37,198 nt of DNA from a virus. Its lineage: Duplodnaviria > Caudoviricetes. Below are positions 2,183 to 36,645 of the stretch, piece after piece (within the stretch, counting starts at the first letter, position 1; every line of letters begins with the position of its first letter). A program made the position numbers and the translations under genes. The DNA is taken from the IMG/VR virus record IMGVR_UViG_3300020045_003443, positions 1-37,198 of that record; one strand, 5' to 3'. The notes under the pieces are model-generated. The model was not told the DNA's origin and made no database searches. It saw nothing but the letters and a program-made list of their open reading frames with translations.

Positions 2183-2530
2183 ATGAGAAAAACCCTATTA
2201 GCTTTATTTATCATTCTTGGATTTAGTGCAATATCACAAAACGTTAGCAATCAAGAACAAAAGTTTAATTCTAAAAACAGAAAAACAGGGCGTTTATTAT
2301 GTAGTGCCGGGGCATTATATGTAATCGGTGGCGCATGTACTGGAATTAATGCAATGGGTACAGATAAAAACGCTCAATATGTTTCTTCCGGGAGCTTTAT
2401 TATTGGCAGCATCTTTTTAATGTGTGCGGCTGAAAACATTTATAGTACTATGTTGATTAAAAGAGAATCATTAACTATTAAATTAGGCACTACTAACAAC
2501 GGTGTTGGTTTATGTATGAATTTTAAATAA
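2183..2530 (+). CDS. Signal-peptide membrane protein (possible exclusion or envelope protein)
   Basis: MRKTLLALFIILGFSAIS|Q signal; two Gly-rich hydrophobic helices; C-terminal GVGLCMNF strand. Confidence 0.7.
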   Translation: MRKTLLALFIILGFSAISQNVSNQEQKFNSKNRKTGRLLCSAGALYVIGGACTGINAMGTDKNAQYVSSGSFIIGSIFLMCAAENIYSTMLIKRESLTIKLGTTNNGVGLCMNFK

Positions 2531-4621: not shown

Positions 4622-5050
4622 ATGAATGAATTTGAGTGCAAATATTTTTTTGAACCAAACAAGAAACCTAGTGATTTTGTTAAAAGCGTAGAAGTGACTG
4701 ACGTTACAGAGCTTTACGATATATTAAAAGAAAATAATATTAAGAGCGACACTAAATGGTATCCATATCCTTCTGATAATTGCCTATACAATAATTATCA
4801 TAAACCAATTGAATTAAAAAACAGCGTTCATTTAGAACAAAGAATTGAATTATCGGAGGCAGAATTTGATACTATTTTTAAATACGATGGCCCAGATAAG
4901 TTAATCACTCATTTACATGGGCAATGGTTTGAAATAAATCAATTAGATTTTAAAAATAGATATTCTCAAGTTTACCCAAAATATACTTTTCCGAAGCAGT
5001 GTATTATTAATCTATTTTTATTAGATAAACAACCGACTACTTCAAACTAA
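4622..5050 (+). CDS. Hypothetical moron-like protein
   Basis: 142-aa ORF with its own promoter; 3' end overlaps the portal stop convergently. Confidence 0.6.
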   Translation: MNEFECKYFFEPNKKPSDFVKSVEVTDVTELYDILKENNIKSDTKWYPYPSDNCLYNNYHKPIELKNSVHLEQRIELSEAEFDTIFKYDGPDKLITHLHGQWFEINQLDFKNRYSQVYPKYTFPKQCIINLFLLDKQPTTSN

Positions 5051-6266
5051 CCCCAAACTGATTAATCAATATCGCATTAGCTTGCTGAGGTGTAATGATT
5101 TGAGATGTAACCAACGAATTAAGAGCAGCACTAACACTATTCAATGTAGTGGCTTCTTGAGTTTTATCCGCTTGTAAGTATGGTAAATGTGAATAATCTA
5201 ATACTAATCTGTAACCTTCTGGTACTCCAATAAACTTAGATAAGTTTTGAGTAAATCCATCGGCATCCGGTACAACCGTATCATTATGTGTAGATATTAA
5301 ACCATGCTTTAAATTCTCATAAGTTGAACCGCTAAATAAGTTTCTGTTAACTCCAAGAGCATCAAGTATCGTCATTCCATTAGCATCTATTTGCTCTGGT
5401 AATAACAAATCTCTTGTAGGATAACTCATAGGTGTATAAGTCAAAGGTGAGTTAGTTATAATCGTTTTCATTTGGTTGTCATCAACACCATGATTCCTGC
5501 GATATAATTCCTCTTTCTCTTTTATTTCTTCTGGGGTAGCTGGTAAAGCTCCCATTGAATCCTTTAACGGTGTACGGCTCAATATACCTAATGCGCCACG
5601 CTCGCCACTAATACAGTTTAAATACTTATACGCTAACTCTGTATTGCTTGTTGGAAATTCTAAACCTACTAATGGACTGATACCCACTAAAGGATTATCC
5701 AGATCATCAACTTTACTCCACAATACGCTATTTACTTCAAACGGCTTAATCATTCCATTCTCGGTGTATTCGTACTTAGATATAACGCCCTCGATACTAA
5801 CTTGATCGAAATATTTACCAGTAAGTACTGGTTTTAATAATGCTGGGCTAATATTTTTTAATGATGTTGGTACTTTTGATAAAGGGCTTGGAGTTGATTT
5901 GTAGATAAACTGATTACCGTAAACCTTCAATTGTCTATAATATTGGTTTAAGAATGGGTTTTGTCCCTGCAATATGTTTGGTTTCTCAAGTAGTTTAGCA
6001 AACTCTGGAGGTAAAGAATCTAATTTATCACTACCAATCTTCTGATACTTAAACACCCCATTACTAAACATCGAGGCTAATTTATCAACTGGAATTTTAA
6101 ACTGAGGGATCGAATTATATATTTTATAAGGCACTAAAGCATTAATATATACCTGCCCTTTATTAATATTCATATCCACACGTTGGTTAAAATACTGCTT
6201 TTTAGCTTGCTTTGATGTTCCGTTGAACAAATCACCGATTGAGTAAAATAGATTGCTTATTTGCAT
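5037..6266 (-). CDS. Portal protein (HK97-family-like), inverted
   Basis: LLEKPNILQ...LKVYGNQFIY and GISPL motifs; 409 aa; lies between terL and the protease. Confidence 0.88.
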   Translation of the reverse strand: MQISNLFYSIGDLFNGTSKQAKKQYFNQRVDMNINKGQVYINALVPYKIYNSIPQFKIPVDKLASMFSNGVFKYQKIGSDKLDSLPPEFAKLLEKPNILQGQNPFLNQYYRQLKVYGNQFIYKSTPSPLSKVPTSLKNISPALLKPVLTGKYFDQVSIEGVISKYEYTENGMIKPFEVNSVLWSKVDDLDNPLVGISPLVGLEFPTSNTELAYKYLNCISGERGALGILSRTPLKDSMGALPATPEEIKEKEELYRRNHGVDDNQMKTIITNSPLTYTPMSYPTRDLLLPEQIDANGMTILDALGVNRNLFSGSTYENLKHGLISTHNDTVVPDADGFTQNLSKFIGVPEGYRLVLDYSHLPYLQADKTQEATTLNSVSAALNSLVTSQIITPQQANAILINQFGVSLK

Positions 6267-6296
6267 TATATATGCTTTAAATGAATATTATTTTAG

Positions 6297-6304
6297 CAAA
6301 AGTA
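6297..6304 (-). promoter_or_regulatory. Portal promoter -7 box
   Basis: TACTTTTG on the minus strand, 30 nt upstream of the portal ATG. Confidence 0.6.
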
Positions 6305-6317
6305 CAAAATATTTTTC

Positions 6318-6356
6318 ATAACGGTTTGCGTATTGCCTAAATATGTTTTATATTTG
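6318..6356 (+). promoter_or_regulatory. Putative late promoter of the head-tail-lysis operon
   Basis: TTTG (6325-6328), 20-nt spacer, TATATTTG (6349-6356); near-copy of 2652-2689. Confidence 0.75.
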
Positions 6357-6394
6357 TGCAAAGTTTATTCGATAAATACGAATCACTTTAATTA

Positions 6395-6490
6395 ATGGCA
6401 AAGCAAAAAGTACTTACATCTGAGGAAATTAAGGCTATCAAAGCCGTTAAATCCAATATTATTAATTCTAACCAAGTAATTAATAAGTAA
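6395..6490 (+). CDS. 31-aa basic peptide coupled to the protease
   Basis: MAKQKVLTSEEIKAIKAVKSNIINSNQVINK; TAATG overlap. Confidence 0.55.
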   Translation: MAKQKVLTSEEIKAIKAVKSNIINSNQVINK

Positions 6491-7290
6491 TGGATATTTT
6501 CAAACATTTAAAAGATAATAAAGCTGCTTTGATTTCTGAAAAGAAGTTTAAGGTTAAAGAAGCTGATGCTATTATTTATACTCCTAGCGCAACTACCTTA
6601 AAAGGCGAGGCTGTTAAGGCTGATAACGATGTTAATTTATTAGAGTTAGATAATATCAAAGTAAAAGTAGTGATCAATACTACTAATATTTTAGATTCAC
6701 ATGGTGACGTTCATATTAAAGGCATTTGGAATAAATCATTAAAGGAACAAAAGAGCCTTTATTTATTGCAAGAGCATCAAATGACATTTAGTAAAATTAT
6801 TACTGATGACTTAACAGCATCGGTTAAAACTATGTCATGGTCTGAATTAGGTTTTGATAAATTAGAAGGTGACACACAAGCGTTAATATTCGAGGCTAAT
6901 GTAAGTTCTAAACGTAATGAGTTTATGTTTGAACAGTACGCTAAAGGTTATGTTAAAGAACATTCAGTTGGTATGCGTTACATAAACATTCTATTATGTA
7001 TCAATTCAGACGAGAAATATTATAGAGAGGAAAAAGATAACTGGGATAAATACATTGTTGAAGTTTCAAATAAAGAAGATGCAATAGCTCAAGGTTATTT
7101 TTGGGCTGTTACAGAAGCTAAGATTATTGAAGGCTCGGCAGTTGTTAAAGGTTCTAATTATGCTACTCCTACTTTATCAGTAAAAGAAAATACGGAGCCG
7201 GTTACTACCACTCCTAAAACAGAGCCGCCTACAAGCACTCAACTAAACAAAACAAAAAAAGAAAACCTAATTAAATTATTAAACAACTAA
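6490..7290 (+). CDS. HK97-type prohead protease
   Basis: LDSHGDVHIKGIWNKSL; catalytic-type His (QEH); HSVG; EGSAV. Confidence 0.88.
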   Translation: MDIFKHLKDNKAALISEKKFKVKEADAIIYTPSATTLKGEAVKADNDVNLLELDNIKVKVVINTTNILDSHGDVHIKGIWNKSLKEQKSLYLLQEHQMTFSKIITDDLTASVKTMSWSELGFDKLEGDTQALIFEANVSSKRNEFMFEQYAKGYVKEHSVGMRYINILLCINSDEKYYREEKDNWDKYIVEVSNKEDAIAQGYFWAVTEAKIIEGSAVVKGSNYATPTLSVKENTEPVTTTPKTEPPTSTQLNKTKKENLIKLLNN

Positions 7291-7300
7291 AAACAACATA

Positions 7301-8755
7301 ATGAAAAAAAATCCAATGATCCGTTTTAAGGATGTAAAACAACACAACAAGGTAAAAAAAGCGGCAAAGATTTTATTTGCTACCATTGCAATCGCTTTAA
7401 CTTTTGGCTTTTATGGAGCTGATTTTTCTAAGATTAATAAATCAGATGTAGCAACTGGATTAACAGTAGCAGCATTGCCTTTATTTATGATTAAAGGCGA
7501 GTTCAAAGAATTAAAAGGTGAGGAATGGGAAACATTCAAAACAGAAGCAACAGCAGAAGAAATGGCTGAGTATTTCGCAGCTAAAAATGAAGATGCAAAT
7601 AAAAAGATGAATGCTTTAATTGAAAGCAAGGCATCTAAAGAAGATATTGAAGCATTACGCAAAGATATTTTAGCATCTAATAACGAGATAATGAAAGCCG
7701 AAGTAATCCGTTTAGCTACTGAGTTAAAAGCTCTTAAAGAAACTGGCACGCCTTCAACTGGAAAAGCATCTTTAAAAGATGAGTTTGCAGCTAATAAAGA
7801 AGAATTAAAACGTATTGCTAACAAAGTATCTGAAAAAGAAGTTACTATTAAGGCATTAACTTTACGTTCTTTTATTGCTAACAACGAAACCGCTTATGAC
7901 TTACCAGAGATTGGTCAGTTAGCGCACCGTAAATTGTCTTTATATGACATTTTCCCTAAGTTAAATTTAGGAGCTGGTCAACATAACGGAACTATTCGTT
8001 ACTACGATTGGGATGAAGATACAATTGCAAGAGCAGCAGCAGCAGTAGCAGAAGGTGCAGCTTTCCCAGAATCAACTGCAAAATTCAAAAAAGGTTCAAT
8101 TACTTTACAAAAAATCGGTGACACATTACCAGTTACTGAGGAATTTTTCGAAGATGAAACTTTATTTGCTGCTGAGTTAGGTATGTTCTTAGAAACAAAC
8201 GTAGCTTTAGAAATTGACCGTCAGTTAGCAGACGGTGATGGTACTGGTAACACGATTACTGGTTTAAAAGCTAGTGTAAATGCTTACACATTACCTGGTG
8301 CTGGTTCTATTGTTGATCCAACTATCTACGATTTACTTGTAAAAGTATCTGAGCAAATCACTTCTACTGGAGGTGCTAAATATCAACCTGACTTTGCGGT
8401 AATGAATATTGTTGACATCAACCGTATGAAATTATCTAAGGATGCAAACCAAAACTATATTTTACCTCCATTTGTAAGTCGTGACGGTTCTCAAGTAGCT
8501 GGTATCGTAGTAATCGAATCAAACATTATCACAGCTAACACTATGGTAGTAGGGGATAGACGTTTTGCTCGTATCTATGAATTAGGTGGTATCGTATTAT
8601 CTAAAGGAATGGTTAACGCTCAATTCACTGAGGATGAGTTAACATTAAAAGCTCGTAAACGTTTAGCGTTCTTAATCAGAGCAGCAGACAAAGGCGGTTT
8701 CAGAAAAGTAACCGACATCGATGCAGCTTTAGCAGCAATCACAGCAGCACCTTAA
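7301..8755 (+). CDS. Major capsid protein (HK97 fold) with a hydrophobic N-terminal leader and a coiled-coil delta domain
   Basis: VAEGAAFPES; KIGDTLPVTEEFFED; DRQLADGDGTGNTITGL; LSKDANQNYI. Confidence 0.93.
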   Translation: MKKNPMIRFKDVKQHNKVKKAAKILFATIAIALTFGFYGADFSKINKSDVATGLTVAALPLFMIKGEFKELKGEEWETFKTEATAEEMAEYFAAKNEDANKKMNALIESKASKEDIEALRKDILASNNEIMKAEVIRLATELKALKETGTPSTGKASLKDEFAANKEELKRIANKVSEKEVTIKALTLRSFIANNETAYDLPEIGQLAHRKLSLYDIFPKLNLGAGQHNGTIRYYDWDEDTIARAAAAVAEGAAFPESTAKFKKGSITLQKIGDTLPVTEEFFEDETLFAAELGMFLETNVALEIDRQLADGDGTGNTITGLKASVNAYTLPGAGSIVDPTIYDLLVKVSEQITSTGGAKYQPDFAVMNIVDINRMKLSKDANQNYILPPFVSRDGSQVAGIVVIESNIITANTMVVGDRRFARIYELGGIVLSKGMVNAQFTEDELTLKARKRLAFLIRAADKGGFRKVTDIDAALAAITAAP

Positions 8756-8800: not shown

Positions 8801-9028
8801 ATGGCAAAGAAAGAAAAAACTAAACATTTCAGAGTGTTATTACTAACAGAAGATTTTGGTAATAATAAAGCTGGAGAAACTTTAAGAGTTGAAACAACAT
8901 TAGCAGCTCGATTAATTGAGCGTAACGTTGCTGTTTTAGAATCTAAAAAAGACGATGTTATTGTTGAAGTTAAGGTAGCAAAAGAAGTTAAAGTTAAACA
9001 ATCAAAAGAAAAACAAAAAAAGAAATAA
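8801..9028 (+). CDS. Small post-capsid protein (gpFI-like or bL9-N-like fold, Lys-rich tail)
   Basis: RVLLLTEDFGNNKAGETLRVETTLAARLIERNVA; typical position after the major capsid gene. Confidence 0.6.
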   Translation: MAKKEKTKHFRVLLLTEDFGNNKAGETLRVETTLAARLIERNVAVLESKKDDVIVEVKVAKEVKVKQSKEKQKKK

Positions 9029-9807
9029 TGAAAAAACCATTCTCAATACTTTGTTTATTCCTATTAGTAGGATATTCAAACGCTCAAGTCGTAACGGCTA
9101 TGACGAAATCGGCTGTAACTATGACAAATAGCACGGCTGTAACTGCAACGTTAAACACTAACTATGTAACAGAAAACCTATCTATCCAGGCAGTTGTAAC
9201 TAAGTCAACTGGAACTATTGCAGGAACAGTAGCGGTTAGTGCTTCGTTAGACGGCACAAACTATGTTGCATTAACAGCAAGTACAAGTACGTTAGCTTTA
9301 ACGGATCAAACAACTAATACTGCTATTTTTAACTACACTAAAAACCCTTATTTGTACTACCAAGTTACATTCACTGGTACTGGTACAATGGTTGCTACTC
9401 CTAGCGCATCTGTATTCTCTAGTGGTTTAAGTAATAAGCATGTAGTTAGCAATATGACAAGCAACGTATCATTAACAAGCGATACAACCGATAATACTGG
9501 CGTTTCTTACGTTGGTTTAGGTGTAACTAATTGGTATGATCGTGTAACAATTCAATCAGTAGTAACTAAAATTAGTGGTACAGTAGCTGGCACGGTTACA
9601 TTACAAGGTTCTATTGATGGAACTAATTACGTAACGGTTAACTCATCTTATGCAGATGTAACAAGCTATTCACCTACAAACGTAGCAACAAGTTCAAAGT
9701 TATTTGTAGTTACTGGTTCGCCTTATCGTTATTACAGACTTTCTTATACTGGAGCTGGCACGATGTCGGCATCTCATAGAGGTTATGTGTTACCGAGTAA
9801 GAACTAA
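9028..9807 (+). CDS. Signal-peptide protein with two tandem beta-sandwich repeats
   Basis: MKKPFSILCLFLLVGYSNA|Q; the repeat IQxVVTKxxGTxAGTVxxxxSxDGTNYV...YYxxxxTGxGTM occurs twice. Confidence 0.8.
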   Translation: MKKPFSILCLFLLVGYSNAQVVTAMTKSAVTMTNSTAVTATLNTNYVTENLSIQAVVTKSTGTIAGTVAVSASLDGTNYVALTASTSTLALTDQTTNTAIFNYTKNPYLYYQVTFTGTGTMVATPSASVFSSGLSNKHVVSNMTSNVSLTSDTTDNTGVSYVGLGVTNWYDRVTIQSVVTKISGTVAGTVTLQGSIDGTNYVTVNSSYADVTSYSPTNVATSSKLFVVTGSPYRYYRLSYTGAGTMSASHRGYVLPSKN

Positions 9808-23575: not shown

Positions 23576-25179
23576 TGGCATTAGTTAGAACTGGTTACGC
23601 AAATTTTGCAGCATTTCCACCAACTGGAGCTGTTGATATTATTTATGTTGACTTATCAAATGGCAATGAATACACATGGATTACTAGTGCTTATGTAGCA
23701 TATACACCAACAGAAGTAAATGTTAGTTTAGGGTTTAAGGATTCGGCTTGGTTTGCTGCTAATGATTCTTTGTTATTAGGAAAGGGCCAGCACGTTTATT
23801 TAAGTGACGGTGCCGATGAATTTATAAACGCTTATGTAATTGGTGACGGCGTTACTACTTTAGATACTTTGCCTTGGCGTGGATTAAAACAAACCCTCCA
23901 ACAAACAATAACAGAAAGCCCAAATGTAAACGGAGCAGTTGTTTATTCGCCTAATAATTTAACCTCTTATGATATTAACGATGGCTACCATCAATTTAAT
24001 TCATCTGATGGAGTAGATACAAATACTACACAAATAACTCCAACCGCAGTAACTTTTGGATGTCCAAGCGTTCAAAAAAATGGTGTAGAGGTTGCAACTG
24101 TTAATGATGTTTATAAATACGATAAATCAACAAACGATTTTAGATTAACTTTAACAAGCGGTTTAGCAGTAACAACAACCGATGTTGTAAACGCCAGCAC
24201 TATTTATTTAACACCATATAAAGGGAATGTAATTAGTTTATATGATGGTACTAAATGGGTTTCTTATGAAAGTAATGAGATTAGTTTAGCATTAGGAACT
24301 TTAGCAACTGGAAACTATGATGTATTTTGTTACGCAAATGCAGGAGTACCAACACTAGAATTTTTAGCATGGACTAATGCAACAACGCAAGCTGTTCCAA
24401 TAACTAAATTAAATGGTGTAAATGTTAAAAGCACTGATACAACAAGAAGATGGGTTGGTTCTTTCGAAAATAAAGGCAATGTATCAAGTACGGTAACAAT
24501 AAGCAATGGTACACCTTGTACAATTACTTGGAACTCAAACCCAGCTATAAATAATATGCCAGTAGTATTTACATCTACAGGAACGTTACCAAGTGGATTA
24601 GTAGCTGGCACAACTTACTATGTAGCAAGTTTGGGATTAATTGATACAAACACTTTTAATGTTTCAGCAACGCCTGGAGGGGCTTTAATAAATACTACAA
24701 CGACTGGAAGTGGTACGCATACTTGTACCGTTCCAACTTACACCGAAATGTCTAAATTAAATCCTATGTTATCTAATTCAGAGAATCAAGTAGGATTTGA
24801 TTTATATAGATTAGAGGCTACAACATCTTGGACATATACAACGGCTGCTTATAGACAATCTCGTGCAAATAGAGCAAACCAATTTAATATTATTCAAGCG
24901 GTGGATAATGATATTTACATATTGGCCCAACAAAGAGTTGCTCATAGCGCAGGCGGGAACACTATCACACTTTTACCTGCCATTGGATTAGACTCAAGAA
25001 CAGCAGCTACGTCGAATTATGCCCTCCAATTAGCGGCTAACTTAGCTAGTTTATCAAACTCACTATATATTGGACGTACTGGAATTGGAGCGCATTACAT
25101 AGCAGCATTAGAATTCTCAACAGCTTCTGGAACCGCAACTTGGTACGCTTTTATAATGAGAGGACAAATTTTAGCATAA
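23575..25179 (+). CDS. Tail fibre or receptor-binding protein (mosaic)
   Basis: YVIGDGVTTLDTLPW; RLTLTSG...IYLTPYKGN; TGTLPSGLVAGTTYYV modules. Confidence 0.75.
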   Translation: MALVRTGYANFAAFPPTGAVDIIYVDLSNGNEYTWITSAYVAYTPTEVNVSLGFKDSAWFAANDSLLLGKGQHVYLSDGADEFINAYVIGDGVTTLDTLPWRGLKQTLQQTITESPNVNGAVVYSPNNLTSYDINDGYHQFNSSDGVDTNTTQITPTAVTFGCPSVQKNGVEVATVNDVYKYDKSTNDFRLTLTSGLAVTTTDVVNASTIYLTPYKGNVISLYDGTKWVSYESNEISLALGTLATGNYDVFCYANAGVPTLEFLAWTNATTQAVPITKLNGVNVKSTDTTRRWVGSFENKGNVSSTVTISNGTPCTITWNSNPAINNMPVVFTSTGTLPSGLVAGTTYYVASLGLIDTNTFNVSATPGGALINTTTTGSGTHTCTVPTYTEMSKLNPMLSNSENQVGFDLYRLEATTSWTYTTAAYRQSRANRANQFNIIQAVDNDIYILAQQRVAHSAGGNTITLLPAIGLDSRTAATSNYALQLAANLASLSNSLYIGRTGIGAHYIAALEFSTASGTATWYAFIMRGQILA

Positions 25180-26156
25180 TGTTATTATCAAAATCAAATA
25201 CTCAATCTAAACCATTAGTTGTAATTGACTATACAGATAATCGTTTGACTTATTTAGGTCGATGGTTAAATGGTGCGTATGGTAAAACAAGTGGGTGGAG
25301 TTCGTCAAGTGTTCAGTTTAGAGTTAAAAACACATCTACTGTAAAAGTAAAAGCATATATAAATAGAACGCAAATAAATGGTGGAGGTGCATTAGGCTAT
25401 CATATTAATGGAGACCCTAACCAAACAGCAGGCATAGCTTTTGAAACTAACACGGCTGCTTTTGCTGGTTATAGGACTGCAAGCATTCCAGTAGTCAATA
25501 ACGGTAGTTGGCAAGATATGATAATTCATATTTACGGAGTTCCTGCCGACCAATTTAATCAAGTAACTGAGTTATTTTTAGATTCAATTATTTTAGATGC
25601 TGGCGGTGAATTAGATGTTTTGACGCAAGGGGCTAAGAAAATACAATTTATTGGTGATAGTTGGATGGCTACTTCTAATGATTGGCCTAGATTAATAGAT
25701 TCATCTTTGTACAGTTGTATTCAAATTGCAGGAAGCGGTTATACTTTAGATACGGCAAATACACGTTATCCATTTGATTATAACGGCTCAACTAATACAA
25801 CCGATGAAAGTGTAGATGCTATTGTTATTTCATTTGGGGTTAACGATTACATAGGAGCAGTAACAGTTGGTAATTTCCAAACTCAGTTACTTTCTTTAAT
25901 TGACAAAGTTCAAATTAAACAACCTAGTAAACCAATATTTTTAGTTAGAGTTCCTAATAATGGAGCTAATTTATACGGACAGTATTTAACTGCTATGAAT
26001 AATGCAGCAGGTTTAAGAAGCAATATAATTGTAATAGATACCACTTCAATAGATGCTAGTGTGGACCGGGTTGATTCAGGTCACTTAGGCGCAAACGGTA
26101 AGCTAGTATATTTAGCACCTTTAGTAAAAACAACATTAATAGCAAACGGAATATAA
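25179..26156 (+). CDS. SGNH/GDSL esterase (tail-associated)
   Basis: Blocks FIGDSW, AGSG, FGVND and DSGH. Confidence 0.85.
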   Translation: MLLSKSNTQSKPLVVIDYTDNRLTYLGRWLNGAYGKTSGWSSSSVQFRVKNTSTVKVKAYINRTQINGGGALGYHINGDPNQTAGIAFETNTAAFAGYRTASIPVVNNGSWQDMIIHIYGVPADQFNQVTELFLDSIILDAGGELDVLTQGAKKIQFIGDSWMATSNDWPRLIDSSLYSCIQIAGSGYTLDTANTRYPFDYNGSTNTTDESVDAIVISFGVNDYIGAVTVGNFQTQLLSLIDKVQIKQPSKPIFLVRVPNNGANLYGQYLTAMNNAAGLRSNIIVIDTTSIDASVDRVDSGHLGANGKLVYLAPLVKTTLIANGI

Positions 26157-26158
26157 TT

Positions 26159-26371
26159 ATGGCACTAACAGAAAACGAAACAACTTTTTTACTTTGGGCA
26201 GTAGGAGCTTTTATAGCTGTATTTGCTTTTATAGGTGTAATGGCGGTTAATGCCTTAGTTAAGATGTCAAACGATTTAACTGAAATTAAGATAGCAGTTA
26301 GAGAGGTGGCAGCAAAGCACGAAGATACTGAGAAACGAGTAACGAGAATAGAAAACCACGTATTTAATTAA
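26159..26371 (+). CDS. Single-TM holin- or antiholin-like protein
   Basis: One TM helix plus a coiled coil; upstream of the lysin. Confidence 0.55.
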   Translation: MALTENETTFLLWAVGAFIAVFAFIGVMAVNALVKMSNDLTEIKIAVREVAAKHEDTEKRVTRIENHVFN

Positions 26372-26373
26372 TT

Positions 26374-26826
26374 ATGGAACTTAAACTTAAAAGAACAGAA
26401 TTTACAGAAACATCTACAATAGGTGAATTATCTATTAATGGTGTATTTGAGTGCTATGTATTAGAAGATAAAGATAGAGGTTTAACTCAATCAATGAGTT
26501 TAGCAGAATCAGTAGCTACTAAAGTACATGGCAAAACGGCTATTCCTTATGGCACTTTTAAAATAGTGGTAACTAAATCAGAACGTTTTAGTAAAATGAA
26601 AGGTAAACCAGTTTATTTGCCATTGCTTTTAAACGTTCCTAATTATGCAGGAGTTCGCATACATACTGGAAACAAGCCAGAAGATACAGAAGGATGTTTA
26701 TTGCCGGCTCGTAAAAAGTCTAAAAACTTTGTAAGTGAAAGTACATTAGCTTTCAATCAATTAAATGATAAAATAAACCTAGCTATAAAAGCTGGTGAAG
26801 TAGTAACAATCGAAATTGTAAAATAA
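26374..26826 (+). CDS. DUF5675-type putative endolysin (L,D-transpeptidase-like)
   Basis: STIGEL; TAIPYG; VRIHTGNxxEDTEGCLL (His/Cys motif). Confidence 0.85.
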   Translation: MELKLKRTEFTETSTIGELSINGVFECYVLEDKDRGLTQSMSLAESVATKVHGKTAIPYGTFKIVVTKSERFSKMKGKPVYLPLLLNVPNYAGVRIHTGNKPEDTEGCLLPARKKSKNFVSESTLAFNQLNDKINLAIKAGEVVTIEIVK

Positions 26827-27104
26827 TGAAAAACTTTATAGCATGGCTTCAAGGCTCAGCAGATAATAAACCAGGCGGTGCATCTTCTAAAAAACTAAGT
26901 GCGTTTTGGACTTTGGTTGTATTGGTAACAATTCCAGTATTAGCTTGGACTTTGTGGGCCTATAATCATGACGATTGGAGTTTATTAATTAGCGTTCTTA
27001 CTATTCTATCATTAAGTATTGCAACTTATTTAGGTATCAATTCAAATGAGAAAATTAAAGGTAAAGCGGATATAACTGAAAACAAAGATGAACCAACAAA
27101 CTAA
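26826..27104 (+). CDS. Holin (two TM helices)
   Basis: SSKK followed by two TM helices and a charged C-terminal tail. Confidence 0.7.
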   Translation: MKNFIAWLQGSADNKPGGASSKKLSAFWTLVVLVTIPVLAWTLWAYNHDDWSLLISVLTILSLSIATYLGINSNEKIKGKADITENKDEPTN

Positions 27105-27723
27105 AGAAATATTTACACACATTTGGGATTCAATCAAATGGTATTTACTAACTGTTTTAGTGACGGTTGTAATATTTGCTAATTGTAAGGGGTGTAAACG
27201 TGATCCAAAACCAACTACTCCAATAGCTAAAGTTGACACTATCACGCCAAAAATTAATAAGAACAAAGCGGATATTATCGCTCTAGTTGATTCTGCTGAA
27301 ATCTACAAAGCACAATTGATAAAAGCCATTAACCGTAAAAACTACTACAAGCTAAAATACAAATCGGTTTATGATAGTGTTTATTCTGCTTCTGACAGCG
27401 TTTGCAGAGTTTACTTAGGATTAGTTCAAAGAGTAAAATTAAAGCAAGACAGCACACACGAAGCGGAAAATCAAGCTAATTCATTACTAATTGTAAATGC
27501 CTATAATCAAATAGGGGAGTATAAAGACAATGAAGCGCTTTATACTGAGAAAATTAAGCAGGATTCTACCGAGAAAAAACAGTTAAACAATCGCATAGTA
27601 CAGTTAATTGATACTTTGCCGAAAGTTAAACGTAAGGGATTTATAAAAGGTTTTTTATATGGCTTTGGTAGTGGAGCTTCTGCCAAACAAGGCGTTGATT
27701 TATTGAGTAAGATTAAGCCTTAA
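27088..27723 (+). CDS. Spanin-like protein
   Basis: Hydrophobic N-terminal segment ending FANC; coiled coil; C-terminal Gly-rich hydrophobic segment. Confidence 0.65.
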   Translation: MNQQTKEIFTHIWDSIKWYLLTVLVTVVIFANCKGCKRDPKPTTPIAKVDTITPKINKNKADIIALVDSAEIYKAQLIKAINRKNYYKLKYKSVYDSVYSASDSVCRVYLGLVQRVKLKQDSTHEAENQANSLLIVNAYNQIGEYKDNEALYTEKIKQDSTEKKQLNNRIVQLIDTLPKVKRKGFIKGFLYGFGSGASAKQGVDLLSKIKP

Positions 27724-33709: not shown

Positions 33710-35815
33710 CTATTTAGTATAAAATGCTTGAAAACGTACAACTTCTGTATACTCTGGCGATTTAATTAAACCGTCACCAGCTCCAGCTAATGACTCAGCG
33801 CCAGACTCATCAATTACTACTTTAGAATCGACTTCTTTTGGTACTCGGAAACATACTTGAACTGGAAAGTTAACCTTTGCGTCACCGTTAATTACTTTTA
33901 CAGAAGCTCTTTGTGTAGCTGATAAGATTCTGAAACCACATGAACGACCTTTTTGTAATAAAACTCTTAGGTTTTCTTCTAAAGACTTTTTTTCGCCTAC
34001 TTTTTTAAGTTCCATTTTAGGAACTATTTGCGCTAAAATTCCAGAACCAACTTTTCTAGTTCCAGTTTGCACCATTTCTTTTACATCAAGTTCGTTACCT
34101 TTTTTAGAAGCAGAAACAGCATCCGCAAACTCATCGAATACAACTAATGTTTTTTCGATAATTCCCTCTTTAACCATTAAGTTCATTCGCTCAACTAGTT
34201 GCTCCATAGCTAGCTCTATATCTTCAATGTCATTATAAACCTTAATGTTTCCAGAATTGTACTTTGTAAATTCATACTTTGGATCTAAAATTATAATAGA
34301 TGAAACGCCAGCTAATTTTGCATATTCAATTGTTGATTTAATACTAACTGATTTTCCAGAACCAGTTGCACCGCAAATAAGCATGTGAGGTGTAGAATGG
34401 TTTTCTAAATCCCAAACAATAGTTCTACTAAAATTATCTACACCGATTGGAATTTTGAAACCTGACAAATATTTAGCGTCAAAAATTAAATCCTTATCTC
34501 TCTTTTTAAGCGCTTCAATTGAGATATACGATTTACCTTCGTAAACCATTAAATCTTTTGACATTCGCACACTAGAAACGTCTAATACATTTGATATGTC
34601 TAATTTATGCGAGTGTATAGATGCTATTTTTACCCCTGCCGATACTTCAAGTAAATACGTGTTACTCGAATAGCCATCAAATACATGAGCTACTTTTGCA
34701 ATAACTCCAAAGCTTCGTAAAACGTGCTCAATTTTTTCTTGTTGTGTCATATTTTTATTACTTAAATCGTATTGAATAAATTCAGAAGCATTTCTTTTGA
34801 ACTCTTTTATAATTGTTGGACTTGCTGAAATAATACTAGCATCTCTAATTTTCTTTAACCGTTTTGAAACCAGTTCTTTTTTAGATGGCAAAACATTAAA
34901 TTCCTCAACTTCTGCAATCATGGTTTTAGCCCAAAATTCGTACAGCTCAGCCTTATCTATAAAATTATCTGAGTCGTTTATCATGTACACATAATCGGGG
35001 TCAGAAATAGCGGTTAACATTTTCTTAAGCGGTTCGTATAATAAAGCTTCGTATAATTTTCGAGTATCATTTGTTATTGAAACTTTGAAACAATTTAATT
35101 GAGGTGACTTATCTTTGTTTGCTGAGTACTTATTTTCTACAAACCAAACCTCGTCAACCTTAACATTGTTAGCGGATTCAAAACAATTAACGTAGGTTAT
35201 TGCTTGTCTACCTATTGACAGTTTTAAATCCTGATCATTAGAAAAAGCGTTTTTTGATTTGTGGTCGATAATAACAATTTTATCATCTTTTGTTTTAATC
35301 ACTAAATCAATTTTCGCATGACACGGTAAAGGAATATCAACACCGTTAATGGTTAAAAACTCGTTTAAATAAACTTCAACAAATAGCACCTCTTTTAAAT
35401 TATCAGTGTATGTTGATATTTCAGATAAGAAGTTCTTTAATAGCTTAGAAGTTGTTTCGTTTGCTTTTGCGATACAATCAGTAACCGTTGGCGTAGTCTT
35501 TTGAATTTTCCAGAAGTTAGCATTTTGACTTTCTATATACTCAAAAGCAACCATTTCTAAAAATGTGAAATCTAATAAATCACCCTTCTTTAATGAGTCA
35601 AAATATAAGTCAAGTGCGTGGTGGTAAGCTGAACCAGCAACCGTTGTGGCTGCTGATTTTTGCTTAATACCATATACATAGGACATCTCAAAACTTTTCT
35701 CGTTTCTTGAGAACTCAGATATTTTAGAGAAACTCCAACTATCCATTAAGTAGTTAGAGAAAACTTTCTGCAATTCATCCTGAGATAAATTTTTGTATTT
35801 GTTTTCTATAATCAC
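33710..35815 (-). CDS. RecB-like PD-(D/E)XK nuclease fused to an FtsK/SpoIIIE motor
   Basis: N-terminal: SFSKI, GSAYH, KIDLV, IIDHKS, QAITY. C-terminal: PHMLICGATGSGKS, LDPK, VFDEFAD, GR...ATQR, GAESLAGAGD. Confidence 0.9.
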   Translation of the reverse strand: MIIENKYKNLSQDELQKVFSNYLMDSWSFSKISEFSRNEKSFEMSYVYGIKQKSAATTVAGSAYHHALDLYFDSLKKGDLLDFTFLEMVAFEYIESQNANFWKIQKTTPTVTDCIAKANETTSKLLKNFLSEISTYTDNLKEVLFVEVYLNEFLTINGVDIPLPCHAKIDLVIKTKDDKIVIIDHKSKNAFSNDQDLKLSIGRQAITYVNCFESANNVKVDEVWFVENKYSANKDKSPQLNCFKVSITNDTRKLYEALLYEPLKKMLTAISDPDYVYMINDSDNFIDKAELYEFWAKTMIAEVEEFNVLPSKKELVSKRLKKIRDASIISASPTIIKEFKRNASEFIQYDLSNKNMTQQEKIEHVLRSFGVIAKVAHVFDGYSSNTYLLEVSAGVKIASIHSHKLDISNVLDVSSVRMSKDLMVYEGKSYISIEALKKRDKDLIFDAKYLSGFKIPIGVDNFSRTIVWDLENHSTPHMLICGATGSGKSVSIKSTIEYAKLAGVSSIIILDPKYEFTKYNSGNIKVYNDIEDIELAMEQLVERMNLMVKEGIIEKTLVVFDEFADAVSASKKGNELDVKEMVQTGTRKVGSGILAQIVPKMELKKVGEKKSLEENLRVLLQKGRSCGFRILSATQRASVKVINGDAKVNFPVQVCFRVPKEVDSKVVIDESGAESLAGAGDGLIKSPEYTEVVRFQAFYTK

Positions 35816-36645
35816 GGTAAATCAATTTTATTTTGTTTTCCTTCTTTTAACTTTTCTTTCTTTTCATCAACAGCTTCAATAACTTCAACATGATCAACGT
35901 ACTCAATTTCATTAGCTTTATCATCTTTAATAATTGCCTGGTCAACTAAAACCGCCTTTTGCATTTCAACTGATAAAGGGGCAAATTTTGATAGTAATAG
36001 CTTTAAAACTGTTTTAGTAGCCATGCTATCAAAATCATCTTTCCATAAGCCAAGGCCTTTTTTATAAGTTTGTGAGTATTTTTTACCGTGCTTTTCAACT
36101 TCTTCAATTGGCATGTACATTGTTTTTTCAAAGCCATTGATTAAAGAAAAATAACCAGCGTACCCAATAACTTTTTCAGATGTTTTTTTTGTGAAGTCAA
36201 AAATAAATCCAGTTAATGGGTTCATTTCAATTAATTGACCTTCATAAATTGCCGTTGCTGAAATGGTTTTGAATTGCCCTGAGCGTTGAGCCAATTGAAC
36301 AAACCCTTTATAACCCATTTGAAACTGAGCAACTGTTTTTTCTACCCATTGACCATTTGATTCATTCTGAAACTTTGTTTTGTAAGGAACGATATAAGCA
36401 AAACCTAAGTTGTTGTTTAACGGTAAATCCAAAGTAGCTGCTAATGCTGCTGAATTGTAAATACTTACTGGGTCTGCTTTTGCTAGTAAGTCGTTTGATG
36501 CTGCAATTTGCAATACAGAAGTAATGAATTGTGGCGCTCGTTTACCTAGCATTTCTTCAAACTTTTGGCGAACATCTGCTCTAGCGAAAAAGTCTTTTGT
36601 TGTTAACGGTTTTTTATCCGTTGTTGTTGTTAATTGATTTTCCAT
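35812..36645 (-). CDS. recT: RecT-family ssDNA annealing protein
   Basis: LGFAYIVPY; AQFQMGYKGFVQLAQRSG; MATKTVLKLLL. Confidence 0.93.
   Translation of the reverse strand: MENQLTTTTDKKPLTTKDFFARADVRQKFEEMLGKRAPQFITSVLQIAASNDLLAKADPVSIYNSAALAATLDLPLNNNLGFAYIVPYKTKFQNESNGQWVEKTVAQFQMGYKGFVQLAQRSGQFKTISATAIYEGQLIEMNPLTGFIFDFTKKTSEKVIGYAGYFSLINGFEKTMYMPIEEVEKHGKKYSQTYKKGLGLWKDDFDSMATKTVLKLLLSKFAPLSVEMQKAVLVDQAIIKDDKANEIEYVDHVEVIEAVDEKKEKLKEGKQNKIDLP

Follow-up and report, generated by a model that had tools for sequence, protein, structure and literature searches.

The DNA analysed here, referred to as the window, is a whole virus record of 37,198 bases with direct terminal repeats, and its gene content comprises terminase, portal, capsid, tail and recombination genes. 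The nearest cultured relatives by capsid sequence, at 46-48%, are Tenacibaculum phage JQ and the Flavobacterium Lillamy-type phages, and related loci are contained in Chitinophaga, Lacinutrix and Flavobacteriales assemblies; because these cultured relatives and loci all fall on the Bacteroidota side, a Bacteroidota host is likely. The metagenomes that hold related DNA are mostly from wastewater and digesters, with no RNA run among the sequencing runs in which such DNA was found. The portal gene runs opposite to the terminase and capsid genes and is divergent from that of the protease, an arrangement common to L001-L007, L235, L238, L315, L316 and others; the motifs in the divergent intergenic region are presumably Bacteroidota -7 boxes.

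Table 1. Features of the window, with position, strand and principal observations.
Feature	Position	Strand	Observations
Small protein directly before the terminase genes	2183..2530	+	115 aa; three mildly hydrophobic segments, signal-like start
Portal protein	5037..6266	-	PF04860, E 1e-16
Divergent intergenic region	6267..6489		TAnnTTTG motifs at 6349 (+) and 6304 (-)
Prohead protease, divergent S78-type	6490..7290	+	invariant S159; H96 in 96%
Major capsid protein, whole ORF	7301..8755	+	484 aa; start 10 nt past the protease stop
Leader n-region, residues 1-23	7301..7369	+	basic (9 K/R, 1 D); start Met1, Met6 a possible second start
H1, residues 24-40, ILFATIAIALTFGFYGA	7370..7420	+	17 uncharged residues, mean Kyte-Doolittle 1.95; predicted transmembrane helix
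Polar loop, residues 41-49	7421..7447	+	predicted periplasmic turn
H2, residues 50-64, VATGLTVAALPLFMI	7448..7492	+	uncharged, mean Kyte-Doolittle 2.07; G-x-T-V-A..P motif; contains Met63 (7487)
Delta (scaffold) domain, residues 65-184	7493..7852	+	helical; start resembles leaderless N-termini; conserved K184 at its end
HK97-fold capsid core, residues 185-484	7853..8755	+	PF05065 match and fold match
ORF rejected as a gene	7411..7884	-	counterparts in relatives unequal; regarded as a shadow frame
Secreted jelly-roll protein within the head module	9028..9807	+	two genes past capsid; classic signal peptide, Gln at +1
GDSL/SGNH-like domain protein	25140..26156	+	tail-module end
Lysis cassette	26159..27723	+	1-TM gene, DUF5675 putative endolysin, 2-TM holin-like gene, spanin-like gene; separate from the capsid gene
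Nuclease-ATPase fusion	33710..35815	-	PD-(D/E)XK nuclease domain fused to FtsK/SpoIIIE ATPase; adjoins RecT
RecT	35812..36645

By profile and fold comparison the capsid protein is HK97-type, with a fused delta domain, an adjacent prohead protease and a putative Lys cleavage site. Its C-terminal part matches PF05065 (E 2e-23), the best Foldseek matches of the core model are the HK97 and D3 capsids (E 2e-16), and Lys184 at the boundary of delta domain and core is conserved in 137 of 138 relatives; TIGR01554 gave no match to the window capsid protein itself. The identity of the protease is transitive, through a profile of 81 relatives that matches L015 (E 7e-26), itself a PF04586 protein (E 7e-19); a direct Pfam search and a PDB sequence search with the protease each returned no match. 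The basic n-region and the two hydrophobic stretches that the sequence-only reading had placed before the delta domain are both there, and elsewhere in the protein uncharged runs reach a Kyte-Doolittle value of at most 0.96, against 1.95 for H1 and 2.07 for H2. A profile built from the N-termini of leaderless relatives matches window residues 67-121, from profile position 6 (E 3e-5), so that the delta domain is complete and the leader is extra to it.

That this leader is translated is very likely, given the best start context at ATG 7301, a poor and unconserved Met63, and purifying selection. Using a start-context matrix built from 42 window genes with leave-one-out scoring, ATG 7301 scores 8.6, Met6 5.3, Met131 3.3 and Met63 -9.7, where the true starts have a median of 1.4 and a minimum of -6.1 and 77 internal ATGs a median of -5.2. 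None of the 42 leave-one-out scores exceeds the value for ATG 7301, which bears out the strong initiation context claimed for it ten nucleotides past the protease stop. The contrary reading, in which the leader is untranslated or neutral and the protein begins at Met63, draws on the nearness of that residue to the start of the delta domain and on the lack of a leader in most relatives. Met63, however, scores below all 42 true starts and is replaced by Thr in P0002 and P0006 and by Ile in L001, whose only ATGs within the first 130 codons are at 1, 6 and 55; an internal start there was rejected on these grounds, and the reading as a whole is scarcely credible. Because Met131 scores 3.3, a minor shorter product may be made from it. 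A 62-codon open frame occurs in 0.4% of shuffles, and pN is below pS within the leader in 7/7 DNA pairs (Fisher p 0.025 to 7e-8; the pairs overlap in membership and thus are non-independent). Leader dN/dS ranges over 0.05-0.48 (window/L001 0.37, window/L238 0.39, L001/L238 0.13, L008/L236 0.10, L008/L009 0.21, L315/L163 0.05, L017/L150 0.48). Contigs from two independent sequencing runs carry other alleles with the leader in frame and differ from the window at 22 or more bases; among the differences listed, the n-region accounts for 21 and H1 for a single silent one, with 9 silent and 7 changed codons.

The leader is optional on this capsid core. A non-redundant set of 138 full-length relatives with this core type was obtained from 261 by taking out near-copies and truncated rows. 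In it, 23 proteins have a hydrophobic leader, 109 have no leader and 6 start with a long soluble stretch. As the label was assigned by the hydrophobicity of one segment, the second segment serves as an independent check; it is present in 23/23 leader-bearing and 0/109 leaderless proteins, and the n-region is net basic in 23/23. On a quick core tree (LG+G4) the label requires at least 15 changes, and the row nearest to the window is the leaderless L082, whose core is 98% identical. In DNA of the leaderless type the ATG lies right at the protease stop, so that absence of the leader is not an artefact of start calling. Sequencing runs X1 and X14 contain a variant in which 504 bases (7186-7689) are swapped for 277 others, which would be the size expected for a leaderless allele; X1 has the leader form too. 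The best GenBank relatives, with capsid genes of 401 and 390 aa, are without a leader, and no cultured phage with one was found. The sequence-only reading had looked to homologs for a hydrophobic leader, an expectation sustained by the 23 and failed by most relatives. With 109 of the 138 lacking a leader and 6 having a soluble one, an essential role can be set aside.

A third state is represented by soluble basic leaders of 25-45 residues that end in an aromatic-basic-acidic pattern (YKSD, FRTD), often followed by Gly-rich linkers, in P0021, P0079, P0086, P0117, L057, L175, L176, L183, L187, L279 and L293. A PF05065 scan of 401 genomes around G014 gave 17 matches in 15 genomes (4 mis-parsed, and too thin for a frequency), with the two-segment leader in the source genome only. 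In the same scan an unrelated PF05065 protein, L362 (G141:C70), showed one strongly hydrophobic N-terminal segment.

How such leaders are distributed across capsid types illustrates a second property. With residues 1-125 as the query, 14 proteins were retrieved, and in 7 of these (P0133-P0139) the leader is 50-89% identical to that of the window while the cores are 22-28% identical or give no full BLAST alignment. Where loci encode these divergent cores, a hydrophobic leader is present in 15 out of 131 distinct proteins. In total, 46 leader-bearing proteins make up 19 leader families on 8 core groups; the window's leader family occurs on 4 core groups, and two other leader families occur on 2 and 3. 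In the pair L008 and L236 the leaders are 96% identical and the cores 23% identical. On these alignments the leader is a portable module, exchanged between dissimilar capsid cores. A leader-only profile run against 1.84 billion representatives yielded 3 matches, all capsid N-termini, a number that does not show rarity because close relatives merge into clusters in that set; at that sensitivity no stand-alone or otherwise fused leader was found there. Leader plus the start of delta, used as a query against viral contigs, gave no match. A link to protease type was considered and dropped, as leaders accompany the classical S78 protease as well as the window-type one.

A separate kind of exchange concerns the core itself. 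Closely related phages swap the whole capsid core (types 22-28% alike) with the portal, connector and tail genes kept, as seen on comparing P0133-P0139, L235, L238, L315 and L163 with window 7853-8755.

The leader is best fitted by a predicted inner-membrane hairpin with both ends cytoplasmic. Two segments with KD15 of at least 1.2 are present in 45/46 leader-bearing proteins against 0/109 leaderless ones, and the two hydrophobic segments have the basic flanks looked for in a hairpin of the inner membrane; the positive-inside rule underlies the inference of an N-in/C-in topology. The loop between the segments varies from 0 to about 25 residues in relatives, and in one leader family the hairpin is a tight G-S one, flanked on either side by basic residues. 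H2, of only 15 residues, is rich in small residues, includes Pro, and may sit at the membrane interface. The pattern [GA]-x-[STA]-[MLV]-A-x(1-4)-P, picked after inspecting the sequences, is found in H2 of 23/46 proteins and 8/19 families, where 2000 shuffles gave at most 4 and 2; two readings suggest themselves, a GxxxA packing motif and a protease site.

Whether H1 might instead be a true Sec signal peptide, with part of the capsid protein exported in a decoy or envelope role, bears on the same features. A strict A-x-A follows H1 in 11/46 leaders, so that signal peptidase cleavage is possible in some; the window's own leader has n- and h-regions and no A-x-A. A small-x-Ala also occurs in H2, and signal peptides have been predicted for Nixviridae capsids in the available text of PMC10367356. 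Against export are the second hydrophobic segment in 45/46 and the lack of a good internal start for cytoplasmic subunits. Further against it, the Q-rule Gln at +1 is present in 0/46 leaders and in 36/41 copies of the neighbouring secreted protein (a count with six minus-strand matches left out and three rows mis-started), which argues for an anchor rather than an export signal. The Q-rule covers only part of the signal peptidase substrates of Bacteroidota. Export of the capsid protein is, on balance, highly improbable. The mature part of the neighbouring secreted protein itself is confidently modelled as two beta-sandwiches (pLDDT 89), and one- and two-domain forms occur; XepA, an exported protein of PBSX, is its top PDB match (6I56; E 3e-10, TM only 0.35). 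A link between leader and this gene was rejected, the gene being conserved in leader-bearing and leaderless relatives alike.

A further possibility is that the leader never enters the membrane and extends the scaffold, its hydrophobic tips clustering at the centre of the prohead and being digested with delta. The N-termini of HK97 delta domains point inward in the available account (PMC10275583), the leader has been seen only on capsid proteins, and model confidence for a hairpin is low: the AlphaFold model of the precursor (24 sequences, mean pLDDT 61.5) is uninformative on the leader, with H1 helical at pLDDT 53-69, H2 helical at about 40, no confident hairpin, and delta-domain helices at 74-173 with pLDDT 34-69. 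Set against these points, the hydrophobicity of H1 equals that of the membrane segments of the phage's lysis genes (KD 1.3-2.2), the basic flanks follow the membrane-hairpin pattern, and the leader is exchanged separately from delta and core. An internal scaffold of this kind is unlikely, if by no means negligible.

The leader could also be a small membrane protein carried on the most abundant late gene, released to act alone in holin-like timing, exclusion or anti-defence. Precedent for such a proposal is found in gp9 of Gordonia phage EpicDab, from the portions available of PMC9671378, and a host-facing role fits both the patchy presence, with its minimum of 15 changes on the core tree, and the transfer of leaders among cores that are 22-28% alike. 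The window, however, has a lysis cassette of its own, as do the leader-bearing G002 and G005, which weakens a holin reading; cassettes are likewise present in the leaderless G006, G007 and G008, so that the leader as a holin replacement is not supported. G003 has endolysin and spanin-like genes and no clear holin, and no cassette was found in the stretches examined of G001 and G004. A search for class II holin homology gave no Pfam match to residues 1-66 at E 1, the profile matches (3/3) all being capsid N-termini, and no stand-alone homolog appeared among the 1.84 billion representatives. A released peptide is accordingly regarded as unlikely.

Returning to the hairpin, a mechanism can be proposed in which the optional, selected leader inserts in the inner membrane, holds subunits there and is clipped off before the shell closes, the most likely of the schemes considered, with about equal chances of being right and wrong. 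Inserted as an N-in/C-in hairpin, the leader would keep newly made capsid subunits on the cytoplasmic face of the membrane. Cutting before closure is suggested because the HK97 N-terminal scaffold domain lies inside the shell, according to the sections available of PMC10275583. Candidate cutters would be a membrane protease of the host that recognises the motif in H2, or else the phage's own protease, acting in trans at Lys65 or Lys72, residues not conserved across leaders. The benefit might be prevention of misassembly, gating of timing, or hiding of subunits from cytosolic capsid sensors. Once closed, the shell would mature along the usual HK97 path, leaving residues 185-484 only in the finished virion. 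As a 98%-identical core exists without the leader, the membrane step cannot be obligatory for this capsid.

The sequence-only reading went further, proposing that proheads assemble tethered to the membrane through the capsid protein and are released by cleavage. The analysis supports a translated, selected, hairpin-like leader before the delta domain, and an upstream protease with a conserved boundary Lys; the tethering of whole proheads conflicts with the geometry of an interior scaffold, since a closed prohead cannot hang by a delta domain that lies inside unless it swallows a membrane bud. In its strict form, with complete proheads held by uncut leaders and freed by the prohead protease, the shell would close around such a bud. 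Every subunit would bring a two-segment anchor, by a rough sum 830 helices could be accommodated in a 12-nm vesicle, taking up about half of its surface, and T4 and SPN3US proheads without protease remain on the membrane in the accounts available (PMC9958956, PMC7411985). Besides the interior position of the scaffold, the 37-kb genome would need the whole cavity, lipid would be without a known exit, and leaderless alleles function with the same core and portal, all of which make tethered closure very unlikely. Rather doubtful, too, is a version in which shells grow with their hollow side toward the membrane, subunits hung by the hairpin on a delta stalk, and a host intramembrane protease reading G-x-S/T-M/L-A..P times release. 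If true, a membrane patch acting as a transient scaffold would represent a lipid-assisted path of tailed-phage assembly conveyed by a portable module.

Capsid assembly from soluble subunits has its textbook example in the HK97 pathway, and a selected, exchangeable membrane hairpin on the capsid protein of many related phages would, if confirmed, add a membrane step to it. The natural pairs with and without a leader on a 98%-identical core make a direct test possible. In practice, signal-peptide calls on capsid genes would be neither start-site errors nor proof of export. A literature search, largely of non-subscription papers, found no experimental study of such capsid leaders.

One close likeness already described is the two-helix N-terminus of EpicDab gp9, reportedly the work of Pollenz and colleagues. 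In the available part of that description gp9 has two predicted TM helices in residues 1-62, followed by a coiled coil, with an N-in/C-in topology and before the capsid (PMC9671378). It is a protease-capsid fusion, a single case from a phage without a holin, and was read as a holin fusion (PMC9671378); the window, in contrast, has a separate protease, a lysis cassette and a family-wide exchangeable leader, and the likeness is one of description. Porphyromonas Nixviridae capsids are also from Bacteroidota phages, with a leader presumed to be cut by the prohead protease and Q-rule secreted genes alongside (PMC10367356). One example, of 685 aa (PHROG 21862), belongs to another family and has one short weak segment and no hairpin, and predicted signal peptides on capsid proteins are given one sentence (PMC10367356).

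Other systems share elements of the design. T4 and SPN3US share head precursors on the inner membrane and proteolytic release, via other proteins, in the accounts available (PMC9958956, PMC7411985); the T4 anchor is the portal, outside the shell, whereas here it would be the inward-facing N-terminus of the capsid protein. The capsid of Staphylococcus phage 80alpha has a removable N-terminal leader, cut by the host protease Prp and dispensable for viability, which differs in being short, soluble and without membrane segments in the available description (PMC5744158). HK97 gp5 (PMC10275583; PDB 1OHG, 8FQK) is alike, as far as the available account goes, in core fold, helical delta domain of ~120 residues, boundary Lys (K103/S104) and S78-type protease upstream; its delta domain is without membrane segments in the available text of PMC9671378, and the window capsid differs by its added 64-residue hydrophobic hairpin leader. 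The leader is real, selected and portable, with a putative membrane role, and makes this capsid a variant of the HK97 delta-domain design; such leaders are mentioned in passing in two papers (PMC9671378, PMC10367356).
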